A stretch of DNA of 59,146 nucleotides, filler included, from Psammoneis japonica (GCA_008632985.1; 2 parts of 2 records of this genome joined end to end with filler, not necessarily neighbours in it); one strand, 5' to 3'. Positions 1 through 35,429 are shown, numbered from the whole stretch's first letter. The notes: a model not told the origin generated them from the sequence alone. A program made the numbers and translations.

Positions 1-889
1 AATCGCGTGTTGTTTGACATGAACTCACACGCAGCGCTCAAAGTTCCAATTGCGCTTTTCCCCGTGGCAGGACAAACTGGCAAGGCGCTTTTCAGCGGCG
101 TTTCGCCATGTCATCCACATCGCTGGGGCCCAAGAAATGGTTGCACAGGTTCAGGTGGGCCGTCCTGCCATCCTGACTCCTCTGGGCCGACTTGACACAG
201 GCCCAACTCGTGTGTTCTCGTGCAATGCCTGCAACAATTTCCCACACTTAGATGTCGTCGGCCGTGAACGTTTCGGCAGGTTGAGGGTCGTTCCCAGCAG
301 TGAAATGCGGGGCCCTCGCGATCATCTCCTCGATGGGATTGTTGCAGTTGGTGGCCGGATCATCGGCCTCGGGAGTTACTTCCTGGTTGTCATGGATGAC
401 GCACGCTAGCGGCATTTTCGTCTCGCCTCGGCATGCCCGCAGATGCTCCTGAATCGACTCGATCGTCTTCGGCCAGTCCTTCTCGATGATCGTTGGCAGC
501 GTTTCGGGCGGTGCGCAGGTCTCCTCTGTGGTGCAGAAGTGTCGGTGGCCTCGCACTGTGCAAGGTTGATGTCGACAGCTCGTGACGTCCGCAACATGCA
601 CTCGCAGTGACGAGCCGTGCACGCGGCGAGCTTGAGATTCGTCTCGGCTCGCAATGGGACTGACGTCCCCAGGTTGGGTTGGGCGTTCCCTCCTGCTCGG
701 CGGATTTCCTGCCGCAGCCCCTCTTGGGCGATGAATGACCTTGCACAAGGTCTCGACCTCGTGGTCGTCGAGATGACGCAGTTCATCGACTGAGTCGATT
801 CCCTGCTCATCGGTTAAAGCCGCGGCTGCTTGCGCGGCAAACCCCAGTCGGGTGTGGGCAGCACGCATTGCTGCAGCGGCTGCCGCCAT
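1..889 (-). pseudogene. gag: Ty1/copia (CoDi-like) element C, gag N-terminal part, degenerate
   Basis: ORF 248..991(-) from ATG 889 reads MAAAAAAMRAAHTRLGF..EQGIDSVDEL..DWPKTIESIQEHL..GETKMPLACVI. Frameshifted continuation to position 1 reads LASLSCHGEKRNWNFERCV..VHVKQHAI. These motifs resemble diatom copia gag. Lies downstream of an LTR and PBS. Confidence 0.85.
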
Positions 890-1547
890 GGTTGATGGTT
901 GCGAATGGTGCAATTTGATGTTCTCGCAAACTTTTGTGTGGTTGTGTGCGGAAAGTGAGTGAGGTGCATGAACTTCGCATCGCTTTTCCACCGTTGGATA
1001 AAAGCAATCAACGTGTCCACAGATGGCTGTTTGTGTTTAATCCACGTGGATCAATGTCTGCATGGGAATTCAGATGCAACGGCCACTGTTGCAATCTACG
1101 TGATCGAATGATGCATGTGCCGATCATCGGCAACATGCTCGTTCCCTGGTCTGCATTGACCAATGGTGAGGTTAAATGTGCATAATTTGTCAATCACATC
1201 GCGTCTACATGTTCAACTTGGATGTGTTCACATGCTCACTTGGCGATTTCAAATCGCCACGCAGTTGCCTCCGAGACAACTTCGGTGTGGAAATGGCGTC
1301 CCAGATCCAATTTTGCGCTCTGTGTCCGCTAATTTGCGCTCACAAAACACATCAGGACAGTCGATGCTTTTGTTGTCCACAAGCATTGCGGCCGAACTAG
1401 CCCTGGGAGTTACATGCTCGTCAAGCACGAACGTCGTCTCATGTTTGTCGATGTTTTCATGTCATCTCTGACAAGTTGGAACAAATGGTCGCATTGCGAA
1501 TCGTTCGCAAGCGCAGCAATCATTGCCGCTGTCGTCACATGTGGCGA

Positions 1548-1561
1548 TGGCTCTGACAAAG
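1548..1561 (-). promoter_or_regulatory. Primer-binding site of element C (CTTTGTCAGAGCCA; tRNA-iMet-like)
   Basis: Directly follows the LTR end at 1562. The same motif follows the LTRs at 6760 and 15271. Similar to the iMet PBS TGGTATCAGAGC. Confidence 0.75.
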
Positions 1562-4300: not shown

Positions 4301-4415
4301 TTGGCAGTGCGGTGGAACAAATGGAAGATGGCGAGGGAATCATTTGGAGGAGATGAGATGTCTGGTGGACGCCTGATGGTCTGATGGGGTGGAGGCGGTG
4401 AAGTCCAACCCCTGT

Positions 4416-6577: not shown

Positions 6578-6759
6578 CGAGTAAATCTGGATGGAGGGCT
6601 GTGCTGCAATTGGTGATTGGTTGAGACACATGGATCGAGTGGTGCTGCAGCAACACACTCACAATCTAATCAGGTTCAGGCTTGCATTGACAGTGTCACT
6701 GCTTTCCATTTAGACTCAAGGTGTCGTGCTTGTTCTTTCGTTGCATCGAGATTTATTCG
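6578..6759 (+). repeat. 5' LTR of copy A (182 bp, CGAGTAAAT...ATTTATTCG)
   Basis: Aligns with 13865-14014 and 15089-15270. Imperfect 9-bp terminal inverted repeat. Followed by a PBS at 6760-6773. Confidence 0.9.
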
Positions 6760-7219
6760 CTTTGTCAGAGCCAAGACGAAAAAGACAGAGCGAAATGGTT
6801 TCGAACACAATTCGTCATGGACGATTGTTTGTTGTGTTGTTTGCATGGAACGTGCAGCTGCAGAAACGGTGCTGAACTGTGCGCGATGCGTCAGAATTCG
6901 GATTGATGCGCACGATGATGTGTCTCGTGTCACTTGTTGTGACATCCACAAAAACAGCTTGCAATGGTGACACTCTCAAAGACAGTCACTGTCCTCACAC
7001 ATGTGACGGGTGTGAAGGGACTGCGGCATTGGGCGACATGCCCGAGCGTGTGCTCAACAATGTCGGTTGACATGAACGACACAGGACTGATCACCCTGAC
7101 GTCGGGTGGCTGTGTGAACCCGTCATCACAACACAGAGAAAGTGCAGCCATCATGACCATGCAGACTCACAGCTGTGTGTTCCCGGTGCGGGACCTTCAC
7201 ACCCTTTCTCTGTTGTGGG

Positions 7220-8735
7220 ATGGCAGCAGCGGCAGCACCAGCAGCAGCACTTGTGGCGTCAGCCGTGGCAGCTGACGTTGGTGCAGTTTTACAAGTTTGT
7301 GGCATTGCTGGCCAGAACGCAAGGGCAAGGTTGGTCTTCTGTGAAGGGTTCACAACTTTGGAAAACATCGCAGTGATGGAGAGTGATCACGATGTGGAAG
7401 ACATGGCGCATGGGGCATCTCGTCGCACGGTGGCCGACGGACGTGTGACTCTTGGGACTGTTCAGATCAAGAACTTGCAGGCGCTAGTGTGGTGGTGCCA
7501 GGATTTGCTCAAACCGAATCAGCCATTGGTTGCAGCAGACTTAAATGCAGCAGCTGTGGCTGCGGCCCGGAATGGCAGGCGTGTCGAAAAGGAGCGCATG
7601 GATTCGGACACGTTGGCAAGCAGTCTCATGAAGTTCAAGCCCGATGACTTCGATGTGTGCGAAGATGCTTTCCTGAATCTCTTGGCACAGAAATTTGGCG
7701 TGTTGAAAGAACCCCTTCGCTGTGTCGTAAGGACAATGCCAGCTCCGGCTGCATTCACGGATGCTCAACAACAGCGTGTGCACCAGATGCCATTGAATGG
7801 CGCCGCACATGACGAGGACAACCACAGCGTTTGCCGTGTGTTGAAGGAACACTTGGTCGACACAGCAGGGTGGGCATGGATCGAACCGTTTGACGCGACA
7901 GAAGACGGACGTGGAGCATTCAACGCATGGGTTGACCATTGCAGTGGACAGGGCGAGTTGAGCAAGTGCATCCATCTGGCTGCGGCAACTGTTGAAACCT
8001 TGTTTTGTGAAAAGGAAGAAACTTGCCAGTGCTTCAGCCACTTTGAACAAATCACCGGACGACTGCAAATCTGAACGACAGAAAGTTGACATTCTTCTAA
8101 AAGGGATCCGAACGGATGACACTCGTCTCATTGCAGCAACGGCTGTCATTGGCAGTCAGCACCCTCGTGACTTTGCGGGGGCATGTGCTCATTTCTCATC
8201 CGAAGTCTCTCGTTTGCATGCAGGTGCTCAGTTGGAAGCCCGGCGTTGGTCGAAGCGCAAGATTTCTGAAATGAGCCGTGGTTGCGGCAGTGGCCACGGT
8301 TTTTATCGAGGTCGCGGTCGCGGAGGAAGATTTGGACGTGGGGGTGGACGCAGACGTGGTGGTGGCCGTCAAGGCAGAGGTGGCGACCACACTGCAATGA
8401 TCAATGGAGTCAATGCATCCGACCCTGCAAGGAGCTTCAGTGCTCTAGAATGGGAAAAGTCACAGCACAATGGAGGCATGAGCTGCGTGTTCCAAGCTGG
8501 CGAACGAATGGGTCATGGACGCGGTGGTGGCCGTGGGTCTCCCGCAGGTCAACAAGGACGCGATGGGGGCAGCAGGCATGTGGCTGAAGCCCAAGTCTGT
8601 CAAGATGGCCAAGGCCAAACCCAACAACAGGATCAGGAGCAAAGGAGCAGCAGGCGTGGTCGCGGCGCTGACCGGGATCGCGGTGGATGCAATGGATGCG
8701 CCTTCGGTCGGGGAGCCTGCAATGGCTCCACCTGA
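7220..8735 (+). pseudogene. gag: copia gag, copy A (frameshifted near 8020)
   Basis: ORFs 7175..8074 and 7992..8735: EPLRCVVR, GWAWIEPF, DGRGAFNAW, KVDILLKGI, and an RGG-rich C-terminus. Paralogous to 15703-17213. Confidence 0.85.
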
Positions 8736-8744
8736 CTCCTTGGG

Positions 8745-11700
8745 GTGGCAACAGCCACTGGAGCATTGGCGCATTTGGCACACTTGTCTTTTTTGCTTGT
8801 GTTGCCCTTCTTGCTGTTGACCAAACCCCACCCAACATCTCATTTCAAAGGAAAGGCGACAAAGAGGCACATTGCCGTGACATCAAAGCGTGTGATCCGA
8901 TCGACGAGTTTTGCACAGATGACAAATTTGACGACACCTGGGTTTGTTGCTCGAAATGAATGTGACACTCACGCAGACACTTGTTGCGCTGGGGCGAACT
9001 GGAAGCTCATGGAGATGACAAATGAAGTGTGCGAGGTGCACCCATTGTCATGTGTCCCACCCAAAGTGCGAGCTGCGTGAATGGATGAGATGCCGTCATG
9101 CTGCCTGACGGTTGCCGGCAAGCCTCTTTGCCATCTCGCTCGCTCAGTGGGCACTTCAATGTCTTGACCATTGAATCAACTAGCACATCGCCTGCGTGGA
9201 CATGTCACCACACGCGACATCCTCCTTGCTGGTGACTTCAATGTTCTTCGTTCAACGGAGATCGACTCAGATTTCTTCGACACTCCTCGTTCCTTTGTCA
9301 AGTCGGTTCCCCTGAGATTCCTGATTCCCAGGTCAGAGAATCGGTCTGTGCACCGCTCCTTCTCATCCCTTCGAACAGAAAGTCTCTTTCGAGTTTCGAA
9401 CCTTCGACCTCTTTGACCTCACCGCCAATCGGAACTTTCAGCTGCGAAGACCTCGTCTTGCATCCGCTGTGTCAAGTGGACATGCAGGTGTCTCACCATG
9501 TCATGTATCCTGCCCAAAGTGCGAGCTGCATAAATGGATGAGATGCCGTCACACTGCCTGACGGTTGCCGGCAAGCCTCTTTGCCATCTCGCTCGCTCAG
9601 TGGGCACTTTAATGTCTCAACCATTGAATCAACTAGCACATCGCCTACGTGGACACATCACCACACGCGACAACCCATTTCTGGACTCTTGTGAGCCGAT
9701 CAAACAGATTCCTGTGGCACGTTGTTGCACCGCATGGACAGATCCGGAAACGACTCGTGAACATTCGCTGGTTGGTGATCAAATGCTCTGGTTTGGGACC
9801 AACATGTGACACTCACTTTTGAATCCCAACCAACTCCGTGCGCACAACATGCCCGCACATGACAACCCTTGCGACACCCGAAACGGATTTGGCATTGAAG
9901 CTGACGAAGCTTTCATCCCTTTCAATGCCACGGGGACAATTGTGTCTTTCAAGTCTCGTGTTCCGACGGATTGGGAAGCACAGAACTTGCCGGTTGTGCT
10001 GTTGACAGGCAACGCATGGGATCCAGCACAGATGGACATGGGCTTGCCAGAGTGCGCTAGAGAGCAGGCGGAGATGCGCGCCATTCAATCATCGACCTCT
10101 GGCATGCGACAAGAACAGGTCTCGGAATTGAGGAGCGAGAAGGCAAAGTCCCAAGCAGCACACTGGGGCGAGGTCGAAATGCAGCTGTCGTCCATGTCTC
10201 CCATCTGTCAACTTCAATCGTTTTGCGACAGGCTTGTCAGCTCAGTGAACGTGGCTTGTGCATGTCGCGATGACATGGACAAGAGGCAGAGGGCAGTCAA
10301 AGATTTGTGCAGCAAGGATCGGCACTCGAAGGTTGACGCTGAAGAGCTGGCCCGAAAATGGAGTGTCGGTTTAGAAACGGCAAGAGACACTCTCAATGTA
10401 ACAACTCAGCGCGGTGTGCAAACGGCGACCCAGCCGATGTCACGAAGAGTGAGGGTGGATCATCTTGACTTGCATCGGAAGCATCTGAAAGGAACATGGT
10501 TTGTGGACACTTTGACATCCAAGGTGAAGTCTTCACTCGGCAACACATGTGCCAATGTTTGTGCTCAGGGCAAATTCGTGAAGGTTGTGCCGATGACCGC
10601 CAGGTCGGAGGCAGGTTTGTCTCTTGTTGAATTCACAGACAACGTGGGTGCACCAGAATGTCTTGTGTCGGACGGGGCAGGAGAGTTCACAGGAAGGAGT
10701 GCCGAATTTGTGAGACATGCACGACGCATGAGAGTGCAATTGAGAACATCAGAGCAGGGTCGGAAGAACCAGAACCAGGCAGCGGAGCGTGAAATTGGTT
10801 TCTTGGCCAAACGTTGGCGGCTGCAGATGACAAAGAAGAAGGTGCCAAAGCGATTGTGGGATTTTGGTCTTGTTTGCGAGTCGGAATTAGTGTCGCGCAT
10901 GGCAAGAGGCAGGGACAAGAGGGCTGGATGTGAAGAGGTCACTGGGCAGACACCAGAGACAGGCCAGTGTTTGGATTTTGGTTTCTACGACATGGCATGG
11001 TGGTGGGACAGGCCCAACAAGCCGAGTGCAACTGACGATCCTCGAAGGCTTGGACGGTGGCTTGGCATCTCACACAAAGTTGGCTCGGACATGTGCCATT
11101 GGATTGTTGCGGAAAGTGGGGAGATTGTCTCCAAAACATCGGTCGAGCACGTGACACAGGCTGACATGGCACAACCGGACATTCGTGTTGAGGTTGACAA
11201 CTTTAACGAGCAGCTGGAGAAGCGATTGGATGATGCTGACTTTGTCTTAAAAGGTGATGAAGCTGTGCCCGCATTCGTGGTGGACGATCTTGCAATTGAC
11301 GGCAACCTTGGTGTGGAATGTGAGGGCGGCATCACGCCAGAGGACGAGGAGTGTGGCAACATGCTGTTGCCTGACGAGTGACCAGACGACGATGACGAGC
11401 AGGCAATCGATCAACACCTGGGAATGGAACTTGTGTTTGACATCGGAGCCAACGGCGAGCGACGTGGTGTTGTAACGAAACGTGCAAGAGGACAGGATGG
11501 GCGTCCAATTGGGACTCGGCATCAAAACCCATTGTTTGACACTCGCAAAAACGAAGTGGAACATGCCGATGGAACCACAGATGAGTGTGCAGCCAATGTC
11601 ATTGCCAAGAACATGTTTGCTCAGGTCAACAGCGAGGGCAACCAGCATTCCATCTCACACGAGATGCAGGACCACGAGAGGAGTGACGATGCGGTGTCGA

Positions 11701-13673
11701 TTGCTGACGGCACCATGCAAACCGCTGACAGGAAGGAGAAGAAGAAGATCACAACAAAAGGATGGAAGTCATTGGGCGGATGGAAGGATGGCAGCTCATC
11801 TTGGGTCAAACTCAAAGATCTAAAGGACTCCAACCCCATTGAAGTTGCTGAGCATGCTGTTGCAAACAGGTTGACGGAAGAACCTGCTTTTGCTTTGTGG
11901 GTCACACATGTCCTGCGTGAATGGAACCGCATTGTGTCCAAGGTCAAGAAGAAGCACTGGCGCACGACTCACAAGTTTGGGACCCGATTGCCCAAGTCCA
12001 CGGAGGATGCTTTGCGGGTTGATCAGGAAACGGGGACAGATTGTTGGGCTTGTGCAATCAATGAGGAGATGGCAAAGGTGAAGGTGGCATGGCGCGAGCA
12101 CGAAGCTGAAACCCCTCAAGTCGTCCAGGAAGGCAAGAGCACAACTTTGCGTGGTTGTCAGGAGATCAGGTGCCACATGGCATTTGGCATTAAAATGGAT
12201 TTCACCAGAAAGGCAAGGTTTGTAGCTGGCAGACACACGACAGAGGCCCTGGCATCGATCGCTTGCTCTGGCATGGTTTCCAGAGACAGTGCGCGACTTG
12301 GATTCTTGTCAGCAGCCTTGAATGGTGCCGACATTACGGCGATTGATCTGGAGAATGCTTGTCTCAATGCACCGTGTGCAGAAAAGATGTGGTTTGAAGG
12401 TGGAAAGGAATGTGGCGGGTACGAAGGAAAGGTGCTTGTTGTTGCTCGGGCGTTGCATGGCTCAAAGAGCTTGGGACACTCTTGGAGGTCTGCACTGTCA
12501 TCGATCTTACGTGACTCAGGCTTCGAATCGACGAGAGCGGACCCAGATGTCCACTTGCGTGCGGCGACTCGTGAGGATGGGCACGAGCATTGTGAAATGC
12601 TTTTGGTTTGCGTCGATGACATGCTGGTCATTTCCCATCAAGGGAAGTCCATTGTTGCTGCAATGGGTGAACACTGTGCCGTGAAGCCCGGCAGCAAAGG
12701 AGAACCAGAAGTTTGTCTTGGAGCTAATGTTGAGAAGGTTCAGACTCAGGATGGGCGCACAATCTGGGCGAGTTCACCGAGGTCACATGTCAAATCGGCG
12801 ATTGAGACTGTGGAAGGCCCATTGGATGAAGACGGCAATGGAGAGGTTCTGAAGAACAGTGCAAAGGATCCACCACCCCCAAAGCACAAACCGGAACTGG
12901 ACGTGACGGACGAGTTGGGCCCCGACTTGGTGGACAGGCATTTGCAGCTGACAGGGATTTGTCGTTGGGCGATCGAGTTGCGTCGCATCGATGTCTTGCA
13001 TGAGGTTTCAATCCCATCTCAACATCAAGCCAATCCAAGGAAAGGACATCTTGAGGCATTGCATCATGCATTTGCGCACATGAAGAAACACCAGAACATC
13101 GGATGCATCAGATTTGATCCAAAGGAACTGGTGATTGATGAATCTATTTTCAATTCGAACGCAGACTGGACCAAGTTTTACGGGGACGTCGAGGAGGAAC
13201 TGCCGCCACGGGCACCGAAGCCTCGTGGCAATCTGGCAAACATCCACGCATTTGTTGATGCTAACCATGCAGGGAATGTTGTCACTCGCAGGTCGCATGG
13301 CAGGACTCTGACATTCGTCAATGATGTGCCAGTGGTTTGGTTCAGCAAGCGGCAGAACACGGTGGAATCGGCAACGTTTGGAAGTGAATTGGTTGTGGTG
13401 CGGATTTGCAAGGAATTGATTGTTGCTTTGCGTCACAAGCTTCGCATGTTTGGGGTTCCCCTTGAAGGACCGGCAAGTGTCTTTTGTGACAATCGCGGTG
13501 TTGCAAAGAATGCAAGTGCACCCGAGTCGGTTTTGCACAAGAAGCACAATGCCATCAACTGCCATGTTGTGCGAGAAGTGGTCGCAGCGGGAATCATTCG
13601 TGTTGGCAAGGAGGATGTGGAAACGAACTTGGCCGATCCACTTGCAAAGGTGGTCACAGGAGAGCGGCGATGA
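8745..13673 (+). pseudogene. pol: copia pol (PR-INT-RT-RNase H), copy A, with stops and a TRIM insertion
   Basis: ECDTHADTCCAG; LVSDGAGEF and QNQAAEREIG; TTKGW..WVKLKDLKDSNP; RKARFVAG, DLENACLNA, LVCVDD; FVDANHAG, SKRQNTVES, FCDN, NLAD. Confidence 0.95.
9046..9672 (-). mobile_element. TRIM-like non-autonomous LTR element nested in copia A pol
   Basis: Two 174-bp TG...CA repeats (9046-9219, 9499-9672) around a 279-bp interior. Minus-strand PBS TGGTGAGACACC and PPT AAGGAGGA. 6-bp TSD ACCCAT (9040-9045, 9673-9678). Absent from copy B at ~17520. Confidence 0.9.
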
Positions 13674-13864
13674 AAGCTTTGCTTGTGCATTTTTTGGCAA
13701 TGTCCCGACACCAAGGCCAGGCACCTGTGGCTCGTGCCCACGCATCGTGGCCTCCCAAGCCAGTGTGTCTGGTGGTTTAATTTGGGTTCTTGTGGTTTGC
13801 CTCTCTGTGAGAGGATGTCACATGTTTGGACAAATCGGCGCTGTCATTGCCGTTTTGCAGGGAC

Positions 13865-15088: not shown

Positions 15089-15702
15089 CGAGTAAATCTG
15101 GATGGAGGGCCATGTTGCAATTGGTGATTGGTTGAGACATGTGGATCGAGTGGTGCTGCAGCAATGTGCTCACAATCCAATCAGGTTTGGGCTCGCATTG
15201 ACAGTGTCACTGCTTTCTGTTTGGACTTAAGGTGTCGTGCTTGTTCTTTCATTGCATTGAGATTTGTTTGCTTCATCAGAGCCAGGACGAAAAAGACAGA
15301 GCGAAATGGTTTTGAATGCAATTTGTCATGGACGATTGTTTGTTGTGTTGTTTGCATGGAATGTGCAGCTGTAGAAACGGCACTGAACTGTGCGCGATGC
15401 GTCAGAATTCGGATTGATGCGCACGATGATGCGTCTCGTGTCGCTTGCCATGATGTCCACAAAACAGCTTGCAATGGCAACACTCGCAAAGACAGTCGCT
15501 GTCCTCACACATGTGACGGGTGTGAAGAAACTGCTGCATTGGGCGACATGCCCGAGCGTGTGCTCAATGATGTCGGTTGACATGAATGACACAGGACTGA
15601 TCACCCTGACGTCGGGTGGCTGTGTGAACCCGTTGTCACAACACAGAGAAAGTGCAGCCATCATGACCATGCGGGACCTTTGTGCCCTTTCTCCATTGTG
15701 GG

Positions 15703-17213: not shown

Positions 17214-17222
17214 CTCCTTGGG

Positions 17223-20200
17223 GTGGCAACAGCTGCTGGAGCATTGGCGCATTTGGTGCACTTGTCATTTTTGCTTGTGTCGCTCTTCTTGCTGTTGACC
17301 AAACCCCACCCAACATCTTGTTTCAAAGGAAAGGCGACAAAGAGGCACATTGCCGTGACATCAAAACGTGTGATCCGTTCGACGAGTTCTGCACAGATGA
17401 CAAATTTGACGACACCTGGGTTTGTCGCTCGAAATGAATGTGATGCTCACGCGGACACTTGCTGCGCTGGGGTGAGCTGGAAGCTCATGGAGATGACAAA
17501 TGAAGTGTGCGAGGTACGTCCATTTCTGGACTCTTGTGAGCTGATCAAACAGATTCCTGTGGCACGTTGTTGCACCACATGGACAGATCCAGAAACGACT
17601 CGTGAACATTTGCTGGTTGGTGATCAAATGCTCTGGTTTGGGACCGACATGGAACACTCACTTTTGAATCCCAACCAACTCCGTGCGCACAACACACCCA
17701 CACACGACAACCCTTGCGACACCTGAAACGGATTTGGCACTGAAGCTGACAAAGCTTTCATCCCTTTCAATGCCACGGGGACAATTGTGTCTTTCAAGTC
17801 TCGTGTTCCAACGGATTGGGAAGCACAGAACTTGCCGGTTGTGCTGTTGACAGGTGACGCATGGGATCCAGCACAGACAGACATGGGCTTGCCGGAGCAC
17901 ACCAGAGAGCAGGCGGAGATGTGTGCTGTTCGATCATTGACCTCTGGCATGCAACAAGAACAGGTCTCGGAATTAAGGAGCGAGAAGGCAAAGTCCCAAG
18001 CAGCACGCTGGGGCGAGGTCGAAATGCAACTGTCGTCCATGTCTCCCATCTGTCAACTTCATTCGTTTTGCGACAGGCTTGTCAGCTCAGTGAACATGGC
18101 TTGTGCATGTCGCGACGACGTGGACAAGAGGCAGAGGGCAGTCAAAGATTTGTGCAGCAAGGATCGGCACTCGAAGGTTGACGCTGAAGAGCTGGCCCAA
18201 AAATGGAGTGTCGGTTTAGAAACAGCAAAAGATGCTCTCAATGCAGCAACTCAGCGCGGTGTGCGAACGGCGACCCAGTCGATGTCACGAAGAGTGAGGG
18301 TGGATCATCTTGACTTGCATCGGAAGCGTCTGAAAGGAACATGGTTTGTGGACACTTTGATGTCCAAGGTGAAGTCTTCACTCAGTGACACGTGTGCCAA
18401 TGTTTGTGCTCAGGGCAAATTCGTGAAGGTTGTGCCGATGACCGCCAGGTCGGAGGCAGGTTTGTCTCTTGTTGAATTCACAGACAATGTGGGTGCACCA
18501 GAATGTCTTGTGTCGGACGGGGCAGGAGAGTTCACAGGAAGGAGCACCGAATTTGTGAGACACACACGACGCATGAGAGTGCAATTGAGAACATCAGAGC
18601 AGGGTCGGAAGAACCAGAACCAGGCAGCGGAGCACGAAATTGGTTTCTTGGCCAAACGTTGGCGGCTGCGGATGACGAAGAAGAAGGCACCAAAGCGATT
18701 GTGGGATTTTGGTCTTGTTTGCGAGTCGGAATTAGTGTCGCGCATGGCAAGAGGCAGGGACAAGAGGGCTGGATGTGAAGAGGTCACTGGGCAGACACCA
18801 GAGATGGGCAAGCGTTTGGATTTTGGTTTCTGCGACATGGTGTGGTGGCGGGACAGGCCCAACAAGCCAAGTGCAACTGACGATCCTCGAAGGCTTGGAC
18901 GGTGGCTTGGTGTCTCACACAAAGTTGGCTCGGACATGTGCCATTGGATCATTGCGGAAAGCGGGAAGATTGTCTCCAAAACATCGGTCGAGCATGTGAC
19001 ACAGGCTGATGTGGCACAACCGGACATTCGCGTTGAGGTCGACAACTTTAATGAGCAGCTGGAGAAGCGATTGGACGATGCTGACTTTGTCTTAAAAGGC
19101 GATGAAGCTGTGCCCGCATTCGTGTTGGACAATCTTGCAATTGACGGCAACCTCGGTGTGGAACATGAGGGCGGCATCACGCCAGAGGATGAGGAATGTG
19201 GCAACATGCTGTCACCCGACAAGCGACCAGACAACGACGATGAGCGTTCAATCGATCAATGCCTGGGAATGGAGCTCATGTTTGACATCGGAACCAACGG
19301 CGAGCGACGTGGTGTTGCAACGAAATGTGCAAGAGGACAGGATGGGCGTCCAATTGGGGCTCGGCATCAAAACCCATTGTTTGACACTCGCGAGTGCAAA
19401 GTGGAACACACCGATGGAACCACAGACAAGCACACAGCCAATGTTGTTGCTGAGAACATGTTTGCTCAGGTCGACAGCGAGGGCAACCAGCACTCCATCT
19501 CACACGAGATGCAGGGCCACGAGAGGAGTGACGATGCGGTGTCGATTGCTGACGGCACCGCACGAACCGCTGACGGGAAGGAGAAGAAGAAGATCACAAC
19601 AAAAGGATGGAAGTTGTTGGTCAGATGGAAGGATGGCAGCTCATCTTGGGTCAAACTCAAAGATCTAAAGGACTCCAACCCCATTGAAGTTGCTGAGCAT
19701 GCTGTTGCGAACAGGTTGATGGAAGAGCCTGCTTTTGCTTGGTGGGTCACACATGTCCTGCGCAAACGGAATCGCATTGTGTCCAAGGTCAAGAAGAAGT
19801 GCTGGCGCATGACTCACAAGTTTGGGATCCGATTGCCCAAGTCCACGGAGGATGCTTTGTGAATTGATCAGGAAATGGGGACAGATTGTTGGGCTCGTGC
19901 AATCAACAAGGAGATGGCAAAGGCAAAGGTGGCATGGCACGAGCACGAAGCTGAAACCCCTCAAGTCGTCCGGGAAGGCAAGAGTGCAACTTTGCGTGGT
20001 TGTCAGGAGATCAGGTGCCACATGGTGTTTGACATCAAAATGGATTTCACCAGAAAGGCAAGGTTTGCAGCTGGCGGACACACAACAGAGGCCCTGGCAT
20101 CGATCACTTGCTCCAGCGTGGTTTCCAGAGACAGTGTGCGACTTGGATTCTTGTCAGCAGCCTTGAATGGTGTCGACATTACGGCGATTGATCTGGAGAA

Positions 20201-21446
20201 TGCTTGTCTCAATGCACCGTGCGCAGAAAAGATGTGGTTTGGAGGCGGAAAGGAATGCGGCGAGTGCGAAGGAAAGGCACTTGTTGTTGCTCGGGCGTTG
20301 TGTGGCTTAAAGAGCTCGGGATGCTCTTGGAGGTCTGCACTGTCATCGGTCTTACGTGACCCAGGCTTCGAATCGACGAGAGCGGACCCAGATGTCTGCT
20401 TGCATGCGGCGACTCGTGAGGATGGGCACGAGCATTGTGAAATGCTTTTGGTTCATGTCGACGATGCACCAATCATTTCCCATCAAGGGAAATCTGTTGT
20501 CACTGCAATGGGTGAACACCACACCGTGAAGCCCGGCAGCGAAGGAGAACCAGAAGTTCATCTTGGAGCTGATGTTGAGAAGGATCAGACTCAGGATGGG
20601 TGCACAATCTGGGCAAGTTCACTGAGGTCACATGTCAAATCGGCGATTGAGACTGTGGAAGGCCTGTTGGATGAAGACGGCAATGGAGAGGTTCTGAAGA
20701 ACAGTGCAAAGGATCCACTGCCCCCAAAGTGCAAACCGGAGCTGGACGTGACGGACGAGTTAGGCCCCAACTTGGTGGACAGGCATTTGCAGCTGACAGG
20801 GATTTGTCATTGGGCGATCGAGTTGGGTCGTGTCGACATCTTGCATGAGGTTTCAATCATGTCTCAATGTCAAGCTAATCTGAGGAAAGGACATCTTGAG
20901 GCATTGTGTCATGTGTTTGCGTGTGTGAAGAAACACCAGAACGTCGGACGCATCGGATTTGATCCAAAGGAACCGGTGAATGATGAATCTATTTTCAATT
21001 CAAATGCAGACTGGACTGAGTTTTACGGGGATGTCGAGGAGGAACTGCCGCCACGAGCACCGAAGCCTCGTGGTGATCCAGCAAACATCCGCGCATTTGT
21101 TGATGCCAACCATGCAGGGAATGTTGTCACTCGCAGGTCGCACAGCGGGATTCTGACATTCGTCAACAACGCACCAGTGGTGTGGTTCAGCAAGCGGCAG
21201 AACACAGTGGAATCGGCAATGTTTGGAAGTGAATTGGCTGCAATGCGGATTTGCAAAGAATTGATTGTTGCTTTGCGTTGCAAGCTTCGCATGTTTGGGG
21301 TTCCCCTTGAAGGACCGGCAAGCATCTTTTGTGACAATCGCAGTGTTGCAAAGAATGCAAGTGCACCCGAGTCAGTTTTGCACAAGAAGCACAATGCCAT
21401 CAATTGCCATGTTGTGCAAGAAGCGGTTGCAGCGGGAATTGTTCGT
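17223..21446 (+). pseudogene. pol: copia pol, copy B
   Basis: ORFs 17223..17726, 17787..19862 and 19875..21470: DAHADT, integrase core, LVHVDD, FVDANHAG. Confidence 0.95.
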
Positions 21447-21494
21447 GGGCAAAGGTGCAACAGCACTTAAAATTGGGGTTTGGTTTTTTTTTTT
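21447..21494 (+). mobile_element. 48-bp LINE 3' end with oligo-T tail
   Basis: GGGCAAAGGTGCAACAGCACTTAAAATTGGGGTTTGG followed by a T run; nearly identical to 2118-2164. Confidence 0.75.
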
Positions 21495-21863
21495 GTCGTG
21501 CAGCATCATGCCAACAAGGCAATCTCGCTTGATGCCACCGCACATGATCTTAGTCGCAAGATCGGCTGGATTGCATTCCGACATAATGTGTCCTGCAAGG
21601 GACTCACCCACAGCTGCCGACTCCCCAATGGCATGGCAGCATGTGGAGTTAGACTTCTTCTTCAAAGTCGACTCTGGGCTTTGGGTGTTGTGGACAACTG
21701 ACATGTTGTCCCCACAAATGCACGATGGTCCGCTGAGCGGGACTCCCATCATCCTGAGTTTGTGCCTCAGGCCTCGCAAAGCTTCCATGCCCTGCTTCAC
21801 AGCCACAAACTCAGCACCAAAGACTGAAGTCTTGATGGCACTCTGGCGATTGGAGAACCAGGC
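21495..21863 (-). mobile_element. RNase H fragment of a C-family copia element
   Basis: Aligns to ~24672-25041 (FGAEFVAVKQGMEALRGLRHKLRMMGVP..GDNMSV..NPADLATK). Confidence 0.85.
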
Positions 21864-21949
21864 TGACCCAATCTCCGGATGCTCTCCTCCACATCAGAAG
21901 GAAATTCCATGCCCCTGAGGTGCAAAGTGTGAGCTGCGCTCCATTGGAC

Positions 21950-24234
21950 GGCACCATTGACGGCGAGAGTCCAGCTGAAAGTTGCTGCATTTCTGATGAT
22001 GGAGCCATCGCTGCCAGCTGTTGACGGGTGTGTCTGCAAGCAGCGTGCAATCTCAAAGACGGGTGCATGCAAGTGCGCATCGGCAAAGAGGAATGACTCC
22101 CATTGCTGCAATGATGACAACCAAGCTTGAAAGTCTGAAGGAACCGGTGTGGCGGGAGGTGGGTCGAATGAAGAACCAGTGTGTCCAGCGCACCACCAGC
22201 CATCTCGATTGGCATCTGCCATCACTGGAGAAGCCCTCAGAGACAGATCAGGTGCAACCTTGAGAGGATCAACAGATTGGGCGGAGCCATGAGACATGGG
22301 GAAAACCTGAAATCCCGTGCCCGACTTTACACGCAAATGATCTTTGTCAGGTTCACAGTGCGCTGGAAAGGTCGCGTGCATCTCTGTTGCTGGAATTGCC
22401 CAAGAGCCAAGGGGGCCTTGAAGCTCTAAATCAACATTCTTGCAAAACAACCTGCAGACACATTGCCATTGTTTCCATGCTCTGGCAGATGGGGCTGCCT
22501 GTTCAACTTGGTTCAATGTCAAAATGCCACTGAGAACTGAGGTGTGTCAGCGGAACTTGTGCTTGTCAAGTGCTCTGCCATCAGGCAAGGTGACACCCAA
22601 AACTGTGAGGACGTTGAGAAACAGGCAACAGCAGTTGACCCACCTGACCTCTTTGTCAGAGAAAAGTCCTGAGTCAAGTGCTGTGTCCATGAGACATTGG
22701 TCGTTGTCTCGTTGAAGTGGAAGGACTCCAGGTTCGTCCAGGTCAAAGGAAGTGTTGATGCGGGAGAGAAAGGATCCAAGTGAGCTGAGCCATTTTGACT
22801 CAGAATGTGGTGGGCGGGGAGTGCACATCCTTCAAAAAGCTGACACCGGTGCCCAGATGGAACTGAACCCAAGATGCTGTGGTCCGTGAAAGGGCACGTG
22901 GTTGGCCAACACCTCTCCAGTGAGACATGAACTGCGTGACTTGGCTGACTCCTTGTTTGACATCCAAGGACCAGAAACCGCCGCCTCCAAGGGAATGTGG
23001 GCCAAATGAGGCATGTCGTTTCATGTTGCAATCACACCCACATTTTGCAAAGATCGTCCGCATGGCCTTCCTCTGGATCGCTGCCAAGCAGCACGCAAAG
23101 CAATGGGCTCATGCTTTGTGACAATCTAATGGGCATGAGCAAAGAAACAAGGCCACATCACAGCTCTTCTTCTTCAAGGCCTTGCAGTGCATCTTTTGCA
23201 TTCCAGCCGGAGCTTTGTGGTGGCCCAAAGTCTTGTGGGAGGTGCAAGGCGACAGTTGAGTGCTGGGCCTGCTGTTGGACCTGTCTGTGGAGGAAATGTC
23301 AATGACGATGTCGTCATTGCATGCGCGGAGGTGAGGTTCACCATCCTCCACAAAGTTCCATTCAATGACATGAAAGGAGCACTTCGGAAGTTCCAGCTTG
23401 TGTCCTGCTGCGTTCAGCGGGTCGCGCCAAAGTTGATCATCTTGCTGCGTTTTGAGTGCCAACTCCAAACCATCAGGCTGGGGGGATGCAGTGAAGTCGT
23501 TCACCTGCTTGGATGTGTCGTCTGCGCAGCCTCGGTCACAGATCTTGAGTGACACAGAATGACCAGGAGACTCAAAGAAGGCTCCGTGAGCTTTTTGGTT
23601 GAAGAGATCAAACAAACTGTTGCATGCCTGGTTCCAGCACAGTGGAGAGTTTTCACTGCCTTGTCCTGTGCCGCAGATGGGAATGTCCAATGAGTGGGAA
23701 CATGAGGTGGGAGACAATCCCATGGCTGTTTTTAGCCAGTGACGAGCTTGCAGGAGGGCAGATGTTGCTGACTTTGTCACGGTCTTAGGCACGCCATTGC
23801 TGCAACTTTCAAGAGCTGCCAGAGTGGGAATGTTCCCATCGCAGCAGGAGGCACAGTTGCCGTTGCCATGGATGGCTGTTTTCCGAGACACCCTGTTGAT
23901 TTCCAACATCAATTCTTCCAAACACAATGGGACGTTGGCATGCAGGAAAGGACGTGCACCACAAATGCCTGGGTTGCACAATTTGCGGTGCTTCACATTC
24001 TGAGCCAACAAATGCCACAGGACACTTGAGATGAGTTGGAAATCTGCCTTGCAGACATGAACAACGTGCAAACGATGGATCTTGTTGTTGCCAGCTTCCT
24101 TGAATGTCATCACATTTACAATGTCTCTCCATCGGTTGCAGGAGCATCCCCAGCACAAGGCGCAATTGAGCAGATTGAGCCAGATTTGTGTCAAGGTCTG
24201 CTGCACATTGTCCAGGTGGATGCAGGCCTCTGTC
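21950..24234 (-). pseudogene. LINE ORF2 reverse transcriptase and RNase H part (Ambal-like), continuation of 2197-4300
   Basis: RWRDIVNVM..KEAG..KIHRL, GTGQGSENSP, GCADD (YxDD position), KLELPKC, KTLG, and RNase H AGSDGS..ATFSW. The frame joins DGDL at 2197 to TEACIHL at 24234 across copia C. The Ambal assignment is inferred from domain content. Confidence 0.85.
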
Positions 24235-24410
24235 TGAACAAATTACCCCGCAGTCGCTTGCCAGAGAGCAAAGTCATAGAAAATTGTTGCAACATTGTGC
24301 TGCTGTTTCTAAGATTGTGAGCAGATCTCGGATGGAGTCTTCCCGTTCTGAATCGCCAAATGCACAGTTCTGAACACCATTTCCGATAAAACCACATGGC
24401 AAATTCTTCA
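24235..24410 (-). repeat. 3' LTR of copia element C (176 bp), preceded by PPT GAGGGGAC
   Basis: Aligns to the split LTR at 1562-2196 and lies about 240 bp after the pol stop at 24652. Confidence 0.9.
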
Positions 24411-24651
24411 GTCCCCTCAAGTCGTTGAAGTGGACACTGAATCGGCTTGATCCAATTTGCACTCCGACAGTGTTCAGCCACAACCAAGTGACAAGGAAAC
24501 CCCAACAACCTGCTGAAACCCAAATTGGGAAAGGGTGCCGGTCTAAAACTGTGCCGAGCCAACATGCCCGCCAGTGCAAGCTAACATGCTTGCCAGATGT
24601 GAGGAGAAACAGAAAAAGAGTCAGCCAAGGAAGCGACTGTTCATTCTTCAT

Positions 24652-27600
24652 TCATCCTTGATCATCACATGTGTCGTGCAGCATCACACAAACGAGGCCA
24701 TCTTGCTTGATGCCACCGCACATGATCCCAGTCGCAAGATCAGCCGGATTGCACTCCGATCTAATGTGTCCTGCAAGGGACTCACCCACAGCTGCCGACT
24801 CCCTGACAGCATGGCAGCACATGGAGTTAGACTTCTTCTTCAAAGTCGACTCTGGGCTTTGGGTGTTGTGGATGACTGACATGTTGTCCCCACAAATGCA
24901 CGATGGTCTGCTGAGCGGGACTCCCATCATCCTGAGTTTGTGCCTTGGGCCTCGCAAAGCTTCCATGCCCTGCTTCACAGCCACAAACTCAGCACCAAAG
25001 ACTGAAGTCTCGATGGCACTCTGGCGCTTGGAGAGCCAGGCAATTGATGCCATGTTCAAACAGATGAAATGACCAGTGCGAGAGCGTCTCGTCACTTTGT
25101 CATTCGCATGATCTGAGTCTACAAATGGGCGCAGATCAATGTCCTTGCCCAGAGCTTCTGGTGCATTCGGCGGAATTGCCTCCTTGGCATCCCCGCAAAA
25201 TGCCTGCCAATCACATTCCTTAAAGCCAGACATGTCGACATCCGGGTGCGTCGGATCGAACGCTGACGTGGCGTCATGTCTGTTCTTGAGGTGTCCACAC
25301 ACATGCAGGACTGCGCCGAGATGACCTTCTCTGGGCATGGCAAGGAATGAGGCAAGCTCGGACACCTCTGCTGTGAGGTTGACTCGTAAAAGTTCCACTG
25401 TCCAGCGCAGGACTCCTGCCTGCAACTGGTGAAATCGAGCCCGCTCTGCATCGAGCTTTGGTGCAATGTCGAGCTCCGGTCAACAGTCGCGCGGAAACGG
25501 AGCCGTTGCCTTGTGTGGTGACGTCCATCCGGGAGCAGACTCATCTAGATGCCCCTCGACATTTCCAACAGCCTGTTGGATGTGCTTGCTGGAGCTCATG
25601 CTCCACGCGCAGACACTGTTCGGCATTTGCACTTCACGGATCTTCACCCCGAGGTGCATCTCAGGGTCACCGATGGATCCGGGTTTCATCTTGAAGTGTC
25701 GGTCCAATTCCTTGAGCACCAATGTAGCATCGTGGTGCACCACAAGCACGTCGTCGACATGCAACAGTGCATGGGCACAGCAATGGAACCCATCATCTGG
25801 TCGAACTTGTGCCTTCATCCACACATTGGGATCAGCTGGACATGGTTCCCAACCAAGATGATGCATGCACGATGCCAAGTGGTTCCCAAAGGATGCACCT
25901 GCACTCTTCAATCCGTACAATGCGCGCTCAACTGTGGCACGCTTCCCAGCATTGGGTCCAAACTCAGGTCCTGGAGTTGTGGTGATCTTCTTGCTGTCAG
26001 GTGCAGTGATGTGGGCATTCTCAATGTCCGCAGCCTTAACCTCTGGGTCATTTAGAGCCGCTGGAGCGAAGGCAATCCTTGCACTTTCACGGGAGACGAC
26101 GCTTGCACACGTCAGGGTCGCTGGAGGTTCAGTGGCATGTCCCCCTGCAACACAACGAGCCTTCCGCTTGAAGTCTTGCAGTTTGACATCAAAGACCAAG
26201 TGGCAGCAGACACGCTGGCAACCCACAAGCTCCTCGTCATCGTCAACAATCTCAAAGGCTTTCGCAACGACTTCGATGTCCTCATCTACGGCGTCCTGCC
26301 ACAAGCGGTCGCCGTTGGCCTTGTCGATCTCGACTGCCTCTTCACAGGTCTTGGGAATGCACACCCCGCACTTGTGAGTGCGCTTGTGATGTCGCTTGTT
26401 CACAGCGGCTGTGATTTGCTGACGTTTCTTGAAGGCAAAGGGAACCCACCAGGCGAGTGCGGGTTCATCCTCTGTGGATCTAGCCCTGGCATGCTCTGCC
26501 ATTTCCACTGGGTTAGATTCCTTCAAGTCGGACAGTCGTTCCCAAGATGTGGGTCCGTCTTTCCATTGCACGCAAAGATGCCAGCCTTTGGCCGTCTTTT
26601 GCATGGATCGACGTCCTCGACTGTCTTGGATGAAGGCGTCCTCCTTCTTGACAGCATGCCCGTCAGTCTTGTGATCAACAATTGCATCTGGCAACAAGTG
26701 CTGGTTGCCTTCATTGTCACACTGTGCAAACATGTTCTCAGCGATGACATTCGCCGCGAATTCTGCTTCCTGTCCATCAGGAAACTCGACCTCACACACA
26801 CGAGTGTCAAGTGTTGGGTTTGGGTTGGCCCGTCCGGCAGGTGTGCCGTCCGGATTGAGCTTGCGTCGCTTCACTGTCCCAGTCTGTTCCATGTCCCCGT
26901 GAGGCAGCAGCACTTCTGCATTGACATGTTGATCGCAGGCTTCATCTGGCATGTCATCCTCATCGGAGGCACTGGATGGAACATCCTGTTCCTCGTCATC
27001 CTCGTGCGGTTCGAAGGTGGGAGCAATTGTGTCAGGGTCATCAAAGTCCCCGACGGTCATGCCAGGGCCTGGCTTGACCTCTGTCAACCTGTCAAACTTT
27101 TCACGTGACACCATGTGCGTCTTGTGTCCCTGCTCCTCGGGAGTCAGTGCCCTGCAAGATGAGCGATGGACTGCCTGTCCTTTCTCCTTGAGCACCCTGG
27201 CCGTCACAGCTGGGCCCACATCCCTGCTCGGACCTGGATGTCGCCCCAGGACTTCCTTGTCCTTGGGAAATGAGACTGCCGTGTCTCGAAACATGACCCA
27301 GTCGCACCAGCCTGGTTCGCATGTGTGCGAGATGTCAGCCGTCTGACCGGACACAACAGTTTCCGGGACTTCACCGTCAAGCTCATAGATGCTTCAAGCG
27401 GTGTCAGACCTGATGAGGCCTTCCAGATCCAGGCAATCATCCCACAGGCATTTTGGGGCCTGTGACTTGACCATCTTGCGCCCAACACCTCGCTTGAGTT
27501 CACGAATTGCGCCCTCTGCGGTGTCAGACCAAGGGGCACATGGTTCAGTTTGTCTTGCATGGCAATCAGCCTCCCTGGCTTTCTCACCAAACAGCCCCAT

Positions 27601-28787
27601 TGTCTCTTCTCTCGCCCCGTCCACTGGCACAGCATGGGGCATGCCTTCTTGCGCAAAGAGCAACCACAACGCCTCGTGCGCCAAACGTTTTGACTTCAAT
27701 GGATGAGCGCGTGCCCATCCATTGGACATTGCGAACACTTGCGCACACACATTCCCTCGCCTGGACTTGACAGAGGAGAACATGGCATCGGAGCACATCT
27801 CCTTTGAGATGCGCCTGCATCGCAGTTGTCGATCATTGGCACGGAAACGTCGCGACAGTGTGGGATGTAGAACCATCCTGGCTCCGCGCTGTGTCGCAAC
27901 CTTGAGAGTGTTCTGAGCATCCTTGAGGCTGATGGACCAATTCTTGGCCAAACGTTCAGCGTCAACCTTGAAGCCGCGCTTTGTCATCTTGAGCGAAGAC
28001 AGTTTCATGGATGCCAGCAGCAAACGGTCATCGTGTGCATTGGAAATGTCACGCAACGGCTGATTCCCCAGAGAGTCTGAGGTCTCTTGAGCTGCAGTGC
28101 GTGAGAGCTTTGTGCTCACAATGTGCACATGAGGACGCGCATCGTCCCCGGTCTCATGCACTCTGCCAAGAGCATCGGTCATGGCATCTTCCCCAGCGTG
28201 GAAATCAGAGGAGGCGGGGTCCCATTCCGGGGACTCATGCATGAGTTCGCACACGCTCCCATCTTGGGCCGCATCCTCGCACTGAGATGAGGTCGGGACA
28301 CTGGAGGGGAAGCAGCTCGAGACTCCCTCCAGGTCCAAAGGCACAGCCAATGAAGCCCATTTGCGTCCTTGGCACAATCGCATGTTCCTTGTCGTTGGGC
28401 TTTGTCAGTGGAAACTTCGGTTTTAATGAAAGTTCCACGTCATTCAGCCACAACTGCATTGGACACAGCAAGTCATGCTCAAGGTGTGGCACATGGACTG
28501 CTTGGTGGACAACCAAGACGTGTGGGTGGCCCGTCTGAGGATCGGCACAAGCAACAGCTCCACTGACGGTGCGCAGACGCTTGCTGGCACCCAATGTCGG
28601 GTCGCACCCTTCCATGTCTGCTGGCCTGTCATGGTCAAGTAAAATTAAAGCGTGCTTGCCTGGCACGCTTGTGTCTGCATGACTGTCGATGTCCGTGAGA
28701 CTCTTCGTTCGATGGTCCCTTGACCTTTGTCTGGGTCAAGCGCAAAGTCTGCAACGGACTGAGCCGCATGACAGCCACCATTGGCGG
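24652..28787 (-). pseudogene. pol: copia pol of element C (PR-INT-RT-RNase H), frameshifted
   Basis: IDSHADT, LLCPMQL, LHPTLSRRFRAND, AEGAIRELK, AKGWHLCVQWKDG, RKARCVAGGH, ALYGLKSAG, LLHVDD, FVDSDHA, NPADLAT. Confidence 0.95.
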
Positions 28788-29381
28788 TCACTCCTTGCGA
28801 CATCCAGCCTTGGGGATATGCTTGCGAGCAGCCTTGCGAATCAACGCCTTGTTCGTTTTGATCCTGCTTGGCAGCCGGAGGCTTCATTGGCTCTTCAGTT
28901 TCAGATTCACTGCTGCCTTCATCGGATGAATCGTCTGTCTGAGCTGAAACAGCAGCAGCCGTCTTGGTCAGAGCCTTGATCTGTTTGGCGTTGCCGGCCG
29001 CCGTGGCCTTGCCGGTTTTCGTGTCACCACGTGTGTCGCGTGGCGACTTGAGCTTCTTCCCAGCCTGGGTAGATGGCTTGCTGCACTCTTTGGGAGGGCA
29101 GCACTCATCCTCCACGTCATCGGCATGAATGACAGCCTCTCGTTTACGCTTCCCAGCCCTGAGAGCCGCAACATGAAGACGTTCGCACCATTGTCCGGCT
29201 GGACTGCTTGATGAAGTCCTTGAACAGAATGACGCAGGCATCAAAGTCGTTGCGCAACATTGCGCTAGACACAATCTGCGTCTTGACTGAGTCAAGCGAC
29301 GAGTCCTTGACACTTGCAAGGAGATGGCGGACCTTGGATCGTGCGTTGATCCGCACAACCATGCTGGGTTGAGCCATCCAG
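28788..29381 (-). pseudogene. gag: copia gag C-terminal part of element C
   Basis: LDGSTQHG..INARSKVRHLLASVKDSSLDSVKTQIVSSAMLRNDFDACV; directly continues ..KQHAI at position 1. Confidence 0.85.
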
Positions 29382-35252: not shown

Positions 35253-35429
35253 ATGATAATTCTCTGCAGATTCATCCTCTGCAACATCGCGCTTCCGATA
35301 GGATACTACTTCTATTATAATTAACTTCTATAACTAACGTCTCTGGAAGAATCAGTTGTAATACATGTACGGTGTGCATAGAAATACTACACGAGAGTGG
35401 CTTTACGACCTACTCCTTTGAGGCATCCG

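Follow-up and report, generated by a model that had tools for sequence, protein, structure and literature searches.

The 59,146 nucleotides (nt) analysed here, hereafter the window, belong to assembly GCA_008632985.1 and contain three tracts in which the dinucleotide TpA (TA) has almost disappeared, together with two copies of an island in which it persists. Copia retrotransposons and an element with an RVT_1-type reverse transcriptase lie within the first of these tracts, and a pseudogene lies in the island. This pattern very probably reflects a process acting at the DNA level and in place, which converts TpA to TpG or CpA in transposon and repeat DNA, is restricted to certain regions, and uses both strands. 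The window as a whole holds 533 TA, with observed/expected (O/E) ratios of 0.152 for TA, 1.53 for TG, and 1.59 for CA, and is divided into the following unstranded intervals.

1 to 32800: TA-depleted tract 1, comprising copia, RVT_1-type, and unclassified repeat DNA (TA O/E 0.083 over 1-29381 and 0.048 over 29482-32500)
29382-29425, 29438-29481, and 30860-31149: N gaps in tract 1
32801 to 37999: TA-normal island, copy 1 (TA O/E 0.54)
38000 to 47500: TA-depleted tract 2, unclassified repeats (TA O/E 0.041)
42271-43987: 860-nt tandem pair within tract 2, a repeat structure
47800 to 52999: TA-normal island, copy 2 (TA O/E 0.54 over 48001-52500)
53000 to 59146: TA-depleted tract 3, a copy of tract 2 (TA O/E 0.041)

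Within positions 1-29381, 135 TA are present against 1635 expected from base composition, with TG at 3065 against 1983 expected (O/E 1.55), CA at 2739 against 1678 (O/E 1.63), and CG at 1420 against 2036 (O/E 0.70). An earlier reading of this part made without database searches (the sequence-only reading) had remarked on the many 60-nt lines lacking TA and on the abundance of TG and CA, and both remarks hold, the 135 TA being spread over 490 lines and so leaving at least 355 of them without one. Individual 500-nt bins of tract 1 contain 0-8 TA where 14-39 are expected, and the later tracts are equally poor, with 24 TA against 587 expected in 38001-47000 (CG O/E 0.55) and 16 against 386 in 53001-59146. 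The CpG O/E within the depleted tracts ranges from 0.25 to 0.8. Each island copy (33001-37500 and 48001-52500) holds 154 TA against 286 expected, with a CG O/E of 1.03. Position 29381 is merely the border of an N gap, the depletion going on beyond it at 29.5-32.8, 38-47.5, and 53-59.1 kb, whilst the borders of the island itself are sharp on the right (no more than ~200 nt from 38000) and gradual on the left (~32.8-33.6 kb). Stop trinucleotides on both strands of 1-29381 are dominated by TGA (1252), with 118 TAA and 84 TAG, and as TAA and TAG are nearly absent the window holds 77 stop-to-stop frames of at least 150 residues, most of which are surely not genes.

The retroelements of tract 1 from which the direction and the history of the change can be read are listed below.

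9810 to 13673, plus strand: copia pol copy A (Pfam RVT_2, E 1e-07), with CVDD (TGC) at 12609
17727 to 21470, plus strand: copia pol copy B (Pfam RVT_2, E 1.1e-08), with HVDD (CAT) at 20454
25480 to 28404, minus strand: copia pol copy C (Pfam RVT_2, E 2.8e-12), with HVDD (CAT) at 25761
23109 to 24242, minus strand: RVT_1-type reverse-transcriptase open reading frame (ORF), with CADD (TGC) at 23528
6578 to 9037, plus strand: upstream part of unit A, repeated at 15089-17515 with 90.7% identity

Copia A (9675-13602) shares 92% of its sequence with copia B (17520-21447), the two lying in adjacent units, and the frame of copy A is a read-through frame that has TGA stops at codon 524 and at its end. 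The closest relatives of copy C share 57% identity, and the named ones belong to two diatoms, Fragilaria crotonensis and Nitzschia inconspicua, with the named relatives of the RVT_1-type ORF coming from Fragilaria crotonensis and Ditylum brightwellii. The label “LINE” previously given to this ORF finds support in PF00078 being matched by 3 of its 54 relatives, but not in its own RVT_1 match, which lies below the Pfam cut-off (E 0.064). All four motif positions reported by the sequence-only reading (CVDD, HVDD twice, and CADD) proved exact, and its further motifs were located as NACL at 12354 and 20199, LRHKLR at 13428, and LRCKLR at 21273. No Pfam family was found at E ≤ 0.001 for 13 of the 17 ORFs tried, and a search at E ≤ 1 returned sub-threshold matches only for 16 ORFs, so most of the TA-depleted DNA remains unclassified. 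Only in the case of the copia and RVT_1-type elements is the depletion therefore established as transposon-directed.

The direction of change is evident from conserved tyrosines. The three copia pol translations were aligned with 60 outgroup proteins, taking as conserved those columns in which one residue is found in at least 80% of outgroups, and for the RVT_1-type ORF Tyr columns were those with at least 70% Tyr among 36 outgroups. Tyr makes up 0.1-0.2% of the copia translations compared with 4.0% of the outgroup proteins, and none of the 377 residues of the RVT_1-type ORF is Tyr, as the earlier observation that Tyr is almost gone from the transposon proteins would have it. Copy A keeps 2 of 22 conserved Tyr, with His (CAY) or Cys (TGY) at 16, and 255 of 427 other conserved columns; copy B keeps 1 of 22, with His or Cys at 18, and 262 of 418 others; and copy C keeps 1 of 15, with His or Cys at the remaining 14, and 254 of 290 others. 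The RVT_1-type ORF retains none of its 5 conserved Tyr (4 Cys and 1 His) and 87 of 117 other conserved columns. Across the three copia copies, TAY has become CAY or TGY in 48 of 59 conserved-column cells, with His:Cys ratios of 10:6, 6:12, and 9:5 in A, B, and C, such that both products occur on the sense strand of each element. These sites were TA ancestrally and have become TG or CA, i.e. A:T to G:C at TpA, and the outgroup columns thus bear out the direction, opposite to that of fungal repeat-induced point mutation (RIP), for which the sequence-only reading had argued.

Two predicted copia proteins from other public ENA assemblies also have Cys or His at conserved Tyr columns. In P0031 this is seen at 12 of 15 columns, with the last two columns still Tyr, a pattern that suggests the edge of a TA-depleted tract inside the element, and in P0013 at 7 of 23.

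Comparison of copia A and copia B over 3928 aligned nt reveals 306 mismatches, 292 of which are transitions. These comprise 70 adjacent doublets with CA in one copy and TG in the other, any other adjacent double mismatch occurring at most 4 times, together with 13 half-sites at which TA faces TG or CA, 104 half-sites at which CG faces TG or CA, and 49 other mismatches, whilst TA is common to both copies at 9 sites and CG at 152. A CA/TG doublet requires TA or CG as its intermediate. From the 152 shared CG and the 104 CG half-sites, the CpG route is calculated to account for ~9 doublets, leaving ~61 derived from TA. The excess of doublets over double mismatches of other kinds shows that sites were hit independently in each copy, and hence that the sister copies mutated independently after their split. 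Furthermore, at the Tyr columns shared by A and B the product is discordant in 8 cases and concordant in 8, which is the expectation for independent hits on a random strand. The upstream parts of the two units, compared over 2.4 kb, differ at 191 mismatches consisting of 40 CA/TG doublets, 9 TA-type, 56 CG-type, and 46 other differences.

An approximate calculation, limited by saturated sites and heterogeneous rates, gives a conversion of ~95% of TA and ~25% of CpG in each copy since the split. It implies ~140 TA at that point, a number in line with the TA O/E seen in unmutated relatives (metagenome copia loci, median 0.69). Per site, the loss of TpA outpaces that of CpG by a factor of ~10 and that of other bases by a factor of some hundreds, rough figures given the same saturation and heterogeneity, and differences involving neither TA nor CG amount to 1.2% (49 of 3928 nt). 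The TpA process runs at a rate about two orders of magnitude above background, with CpG decay being a second, slower process that proceeds alongside it in the same DNA at about one-tenth of the rate. The excess of TG and CA, attributed by the sequence-only reading to TpA loss, comes in part from CpG decay, as the 104 CG-type differences between A and B indicate.

In sequencing run X1 (2019), which contains 53% of the sampled words of the stretch, summed word depths reach ~1900 for copia B (17500-21500), ~600 for copia C (25000-29000), and ~200 for the RVT_1-type element (21900-24200). As these exceed the depth of 68-82 of the near-exact unitigs listed from this run, all in the RVT_1-type region, the copia and RVT_1-type families are multi-copy, nearly all differences among their copies being transitions. 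The same run bears on whether the signature could be an artefact, in which TA is really present but the sequencer misreads a base that is modified at TpA within silent chromatin. For both the assembly and X1 the platform is unrecorded, and X1 probably derives from the sample that was assembled, two points that leave room for such an error. Nevertheless, six X1 unitigs at that depth match the TA-free segment 21863-24171 with 0-1 differences over 169-415 nt, where a symmetric misread would split the reads between TG and CA at every site, and 335 of the 366 differences between related X1 copies and the window are transitions. The islands of the same assembly have normal TA, and the same signature arises de novo on Illumina sequencing in B. 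natans (10.64898/2026.01.13.699255). The X1 match argues against random misreading of a modified base, though it does not amount to an independent platform test, and we consider an artefact highly improbable.

That the depletion is targeted is evident from the island, in which the following features are found.

35767 to 36901, minus strand: fumarylacetoacetase pseudogene, copy 1 (Pfam FAA_hydrolase, E 2.8e-11; tblastn with three full-length homologues)
50780-51919, minus strand: fumarylacetoacetase pseudogene, copy 2

The pseudogene lacks its N-terminal ~55 residues and carries several in-frame stops that are common to both copies, so that the island is not a working gene. It keeps Tyr at 5 of 6 conserved columns and the expected residue at 115 of 173 other conserved columns. 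Set beside copy C, which has kept so many of its other conserved residues and almost none of its Tyr, the Tyr retention and TA O/E of the pseudogene island show that dead DNA as such is not TA-depleted and that the process is aimed at particular DNA. Within the window, it is DNA of foreign or mobile origin that is depleted, whilst the adjoining DNA stays at baseline. An equally low TpA in genes or unique DNA, named in advance as an observation that would speak against targeting, is not what the window contains, with the dead-gene island at 0.54. As dead DNA as such is no target, some mark must guide the process.

These observations also bear on the proposal that a genome-wide compositional bias or selection against TA is responsible, with genes shielded by selection. 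TpA is mildly under-represented in most genomes, and the values of 0.54 in the islands and 0.69 in metagenome copia loci are in keeping with such a bias. Against it, a pseudogene with multiple stops keeps both its TA and 5 of 6 Tyr, the ratio falls to 0.04-0.08 within a few hundred bases, and sister copies were hit independently after their split, and we regard this explanation as barely tenable.

Several further features of the island may be described here. A weak glutathione S-transferase (GST) N-terminal frame (Pfam GST_N_2, E 0.0058) adjoins the pseudogene at 35.4-35.9 kb and 50450-50743, both being duplicated with the 15-kb unit described below; this would be a GST-zeta/maleylacetoacetate isomerase, which together with the fumarylacetoacetase would form a decayed tyrosine-catabolism gene pair. 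Additionally, a frame of 405 residues at 49051-50268 (plus strand; a split frame at 34039-35252 in copy 1) has an internal repeat of ~45 residues and a coiled C-terminus, with no Pfam family and no usable ESM Atlas match found for it.

Whether repetition itself triggers the process can be considered from a large duplication that includes the island.

29482 to 44499, plus strand: ~15-kb tandem duplication, first copy (second copy 44500-59146, 98.6-99.7% identical)
38000 to 40500, unstranded: zone with TA-type and CG-type differences between the duplicates, from alignment of the two 15-kb copies

Over the 5190 nt of the island, the two duplicates share TA at 170 sites and differ at 1 TA half-site, 4 CG half-sites, and 18 other positions, so that 1 of 171 TA has been lost within a duplication of ~99% identity. 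The other differences mostly cluster at 34144-34910, in the region of the 405-residue frame. The near-identical duplication has not exposed the island to TpA loss. The proposal of repeat targeting made by the sequence-only reading therefore stands in part, transposon-derived DNA being hit and its low-copy neighbour spared, but with the island untouched in its duplicate, “repeat-induced” is not shown. The zone beside the island at 38.0-40.5 kb behaves differently. Over 2107 aligned nt, it has TA in both copies at 6 sites, with 4 TA half-sites, 6 CA/TG doublets, 28 CG half-sites, and 23 other differences; here TA-type and CG-type changes arose together and in place. From 40.5 to 44.5 kb, 5 TA are shared, no TA-type change is seen, and 5 CG half-sites are present.

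The 15-kb copies are bordered by and contain scaffold gaps (29382-31149, 56908, and 57700-57780), and a ~360-nt indel at 38854-39244 distinguishes them. Instead of a true duplication, two haplotypes or a mis-join may be represented here, or the duplication may be recent.

TpA loss follows a sequence preference beyond the dinucleotide. In each of four depleted sub-regions (24-57 TA each), the base 3′ of the A in surviving TA, counted on both strands, is T in 4-7% of cases compared with 28% in the island, and A in 38-54% compared with 19%; in a fifth sub-region with only 4 surviving TA, T is found on 0 of 8 sides. The symmetrised 5′ flank of 107 doublet sites with unchanged flanks is A in 34%, G in 32%, C in 16%, and T in 17%, whereas in 16 shared survivors and 22 half-sites A makes up 3-5% and T 45-53% (converted versus surviving sites, chi-square p 1e-10). 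Survival by NTAN class rises from ~0.01 for ATAT and ATAC to 0.3-0.7 for CTAA and TTAA. An additive model, with per-strand loss by base 3′ of the A of 2.5 for T, 1.7 for C, 0.75 for G, and 0.5 for A, reaches an R2 of 0.96 when referred to the 80 metagenome loci and of 0.93 when referred to the island. How readily a TpA is lost thus depends on the nucleotide that follows the mutated A (T>C>G>A), and the contributions of the two strands add up.

Two asymmetries indicate that it is the base 3′ of the A that matters, and not the base two positions 5′ of it. Tyr codons preceded by a pyrimidine have become Cys in 14 cases and His in 5, compared with Cys in 9 and His in 20 for those preceded by a purine (Fisher p 0.007, copies A and B not being independent), and at RTAR sites the gain of the RCAR product is +7.6 per 1000 compared with +4.3 for RTGR. 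The motif is 5′-TA(Y), which for the T can just as well be written (R)TA. Neither strand is favoured and no patches are formed: no strand-coordinated runs of products were found between A and B (runs tests, z -0.96 and -0.42), and the TG-CA imbalance over 58 bins of 500 nt has a standard deviation of 0.97, as for a binomial. Periodic spacing of surviving TA was looked for and not found.

In 1-29381, pairs of CpG show an excess at every distance up to ~500 nt, with the highest z of 6.2 at 160-200 nt, which may simply be due to patchy CpG content.

Error-prone synthesis of the Pol eta type, one of the candidates of the sequence-only reading, would follow the motif WA to WG, in which an A after A or T becomes G. 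ApA is not lost in the window (AA O/E 1.23, AG O/E 0.92), and this candidate does not fit.

The flanking rule also bears on the idea that retrotransposon RNA or cDNA is hyper-edited by an ADAR- or ADAT-like enzyme in each round of retrotransposition, so that copies are born mutated. Such pre-integration editing would hit every new copy independently, in agreement with the comparison of A and B. However, each element carries both products on its sense strand, new TA-type differences have appeared in place in the segmental duplication, and the repeat DNA at 38-47 kb, which is without a reverse-transcriptase match (Pfam on two ORFs only), is depleted equally (0.041). Furthermore, ADAR prefers a G 3′ of the edited A, which is disfavoured here. 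We give this origin next to no weight.

The chemistry by which TpA is changed in place may tentatively be proposed to be enzymatic deamination of adenine in DNA. Under this proposal, the adenine of 5′-TA(Y) would be deaminated to hypoxanthine by a polynucleotide deaminase, and the hypoxanthine would then be copied as G to give TpG or, from the other strand, CpA. The deaminase would be recruited to silenced, CpG-methylated chromatin, and the outcome would be permanent inactivation of the transposon through the loss of Tyr and the conversion of TAA and TAG stops to TGA or sense codons.

Several points weigh against this account as a whole. The 9 TA sites common to A and B are more than a single rate predicts, although the context rule may explain them. 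Assignment of the preference to the 3′ base and not the -2 base rests on 48 Tyr sites, with A and B not independent, and on one tetranucleotide asymmetry, and of the context references the island offers only 154 TA and the metagenome set consists of different elements. The link to methylated chromatin is one of co-occurrence only, with the bins at 1-1000 having a CpG O/E near 1 and almost no TA. As TpA is palindromic, adenine deamination and thymine-directed chemistry look alike in sequence. Lastly, the sole run that contains the stretch, X1, is probably the source sample of the assembly, with no platform on record; X2 and X3, two further runs of that sample, gave no unitigs matching it, and no RNA run was listed as containing it.

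Thymine-directed chemistry would have the T of 5′-(R)TA modified or oxidised, for example to 5-hydroxymethyluracil or 5-formyluracil by a dioxygenase of the TET/JBP type, and mispairing with G to give a T-to-C change. 5-Formyluracil is able to mispair with G, and some protists modify T at TpA. All results presented here are symmetric between A to G and T to C, TpA being its own complement, and the flanking rule may equally be stated as a purine 5′ of the mutated T. No result presented here speaks for such chemistry in particular, and the sole paper on the signature argues, likewise as a proposal, for adenine deamination (10.64898/2026.01.13.699255); we consider the thymine route unlikely.

The co-clustering of TA-type and CG-type changes, with 28 CG half-sites and 10 TA events at 38.0-40.5 kb compared with 4 and 1 in the island, would also be expected if a T:G-mismatch activity directed at deaminated 5-methylcytosine were to “correct” replication errors at TpA toward C:G. 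Such biased repair would resemble the very-short-patch repair of E. coli. The tenfold faster loss of TpA per site than of CpG could hardly be reached by the repair of rare polymerase errors, though, and the bins at 1-1000 are almost free of TA despite CpG not being depleted there. The rate of ~6e-7 per site per generation measured in B. natans is likewise high for a repair bias (10.64898/2026.01.13.699255). Biased repair is accordingly thought to be very unlikely, and adenine deamination remains the chemistry that we tentatively put forward.

Whilst the sequence-only reading knew of no description of such a process, one exists. In mutation-accumulation lines of the chlorarachniophyte B. natans, 231 of 302 new single-nucleotide mutations fell in two integrated viral regions, and all but one of the 231 were A to G or T to C, these all on TpA (Mettrop et al., bioRxiv 10.64898/2026.01.13.699255). 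The rate given above was reached in some lines only, as determined by Illumina sequencing, and the targets are integrated giant-virus and virophage DNA, with an ADAT2-like deaminase proposed by those authors. The process in the window is like that of B. natans in that mutation is restricted to TpA, yields TpG and CpA irrespective of the strand, and is confined to regions of foreign origin at a rate orders of magnitude above background; TpA-poor coding sequences of B. natans are also enriched in reverse-transcriptase and DDE domains. It differs in that the host here, to judge by the relatives of its transposons, is probably a diatom, a stramenopile, and the process is known here from sequence alone. 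The targets here are retrotransposons and unclassified repeats that are near saturation (O/E 0.04-0.08, compared with 0.45 in the viral region). In the literature outside subscription journals, TpA-specific hypermutation was found described only in this preprint, with no report from a diatom. As the available text of the preprint makes no mention of a flanking-base or context rule, or of diatoms, what is new here is the T>C>G>A rule, along with the way in which TpA loss compares with CpG decay. The window would thus provide a second, independent lineage with a TpA-specific A:T to G:C mutator aimed at mobile DNA, and would widen an observation from a single organism to an algal genome-defence mechanism with chemistry opposite to that of RIP.

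The spread of the process was considered among metagenome loci encoding copia relatives, of which the best 80 of 519 were taken. Their TA O/E has a median of 0.69 and a minimum of 0.47, and none showed the TpA signature at an O/E below 0.3, the lowest 600-nt window being 0.2. As this sample favours intact elements, the negative result says little on how widespread the process is. One of these loci, L007 (4250 nt), has a CpG O/E of 0.01 and a TA O/E of 0.47, and this near-complete CpG decay without TA loss means that, in other hosts, one process can run without the other.

RIP, as known from Neurospora and other ascomycetes (PMC2621366, PMC7296669), is similar in that its transitions are dinucleotide-specific and densely scattered through transposons, strike sister copies independently of one another, and destroy reading frames as a permanent genome defence. 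In contrast, RIP changes C:G to T:A, mainly CpA to TpA, and so creates the TA that is destroyed here. RIP is also premeiotic and depends on RID/DNMT4. As for the duplication that triggers RIP, copies A and B are both mutated and the island within its ~99% duplicate is untouched, although that duplication may be recent or a product of assembly. In the diatom Phaeodactylum, DNMT5a methylates the CpG of transposons, and the diatom DNMT4, the function of which is unknown, is related to RID; the available text of that paper never mentions TpA (PMC9998398). Methyl-CpG decay acts on the same DNA in the window and gives the same products, TG and CA, but starts from CG, cannot remove Tyr codons, and is ~10 times slower per site here.

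Both TadA/ADAT2-type deaminases and the adenine base editors derived from them convert A to inosine, read as G, with T or U directly 5′ of the target, and the natural tRNA target of bacterial TadA has a pyrimidine 3′ of the A, natural substrates being tRNA loops. The mutational signature described here, with its 5′ T and 3′ pyrimidine, is compatible with an enzyme of this kind, though we know of no targeting to chromatin regions by these deaminases. It is possible, though doubtful on present evidence, that diatoms and chlorarachniophytes share a chromatin-guided enzyme which deaminates adenine in nuclear DNA at 5′-TA(Y), a natural A-to-G editor employed in heritable defence. If so, the shared editor would outpace methyl-CpG decay tenfold here and would have reshaped much of the repeat fraction of a diatom genome, and the T>C>G>A rule would be its fingerprint, expected to recur among the new mutations in B. 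natans. Genome engineers, too, would take an interest in a natural editor of adenine in DNA, if real. The loss of TAA and TAG produces long false ORFs in all frames and, together with the loss of Tyr, misleads gene callers and family searches. For the matching of candidate enzymes, the window offers a concrete fingerprint, 5′-TA with the next base ranked T>C>G>A and the effects of the two strands adding up.

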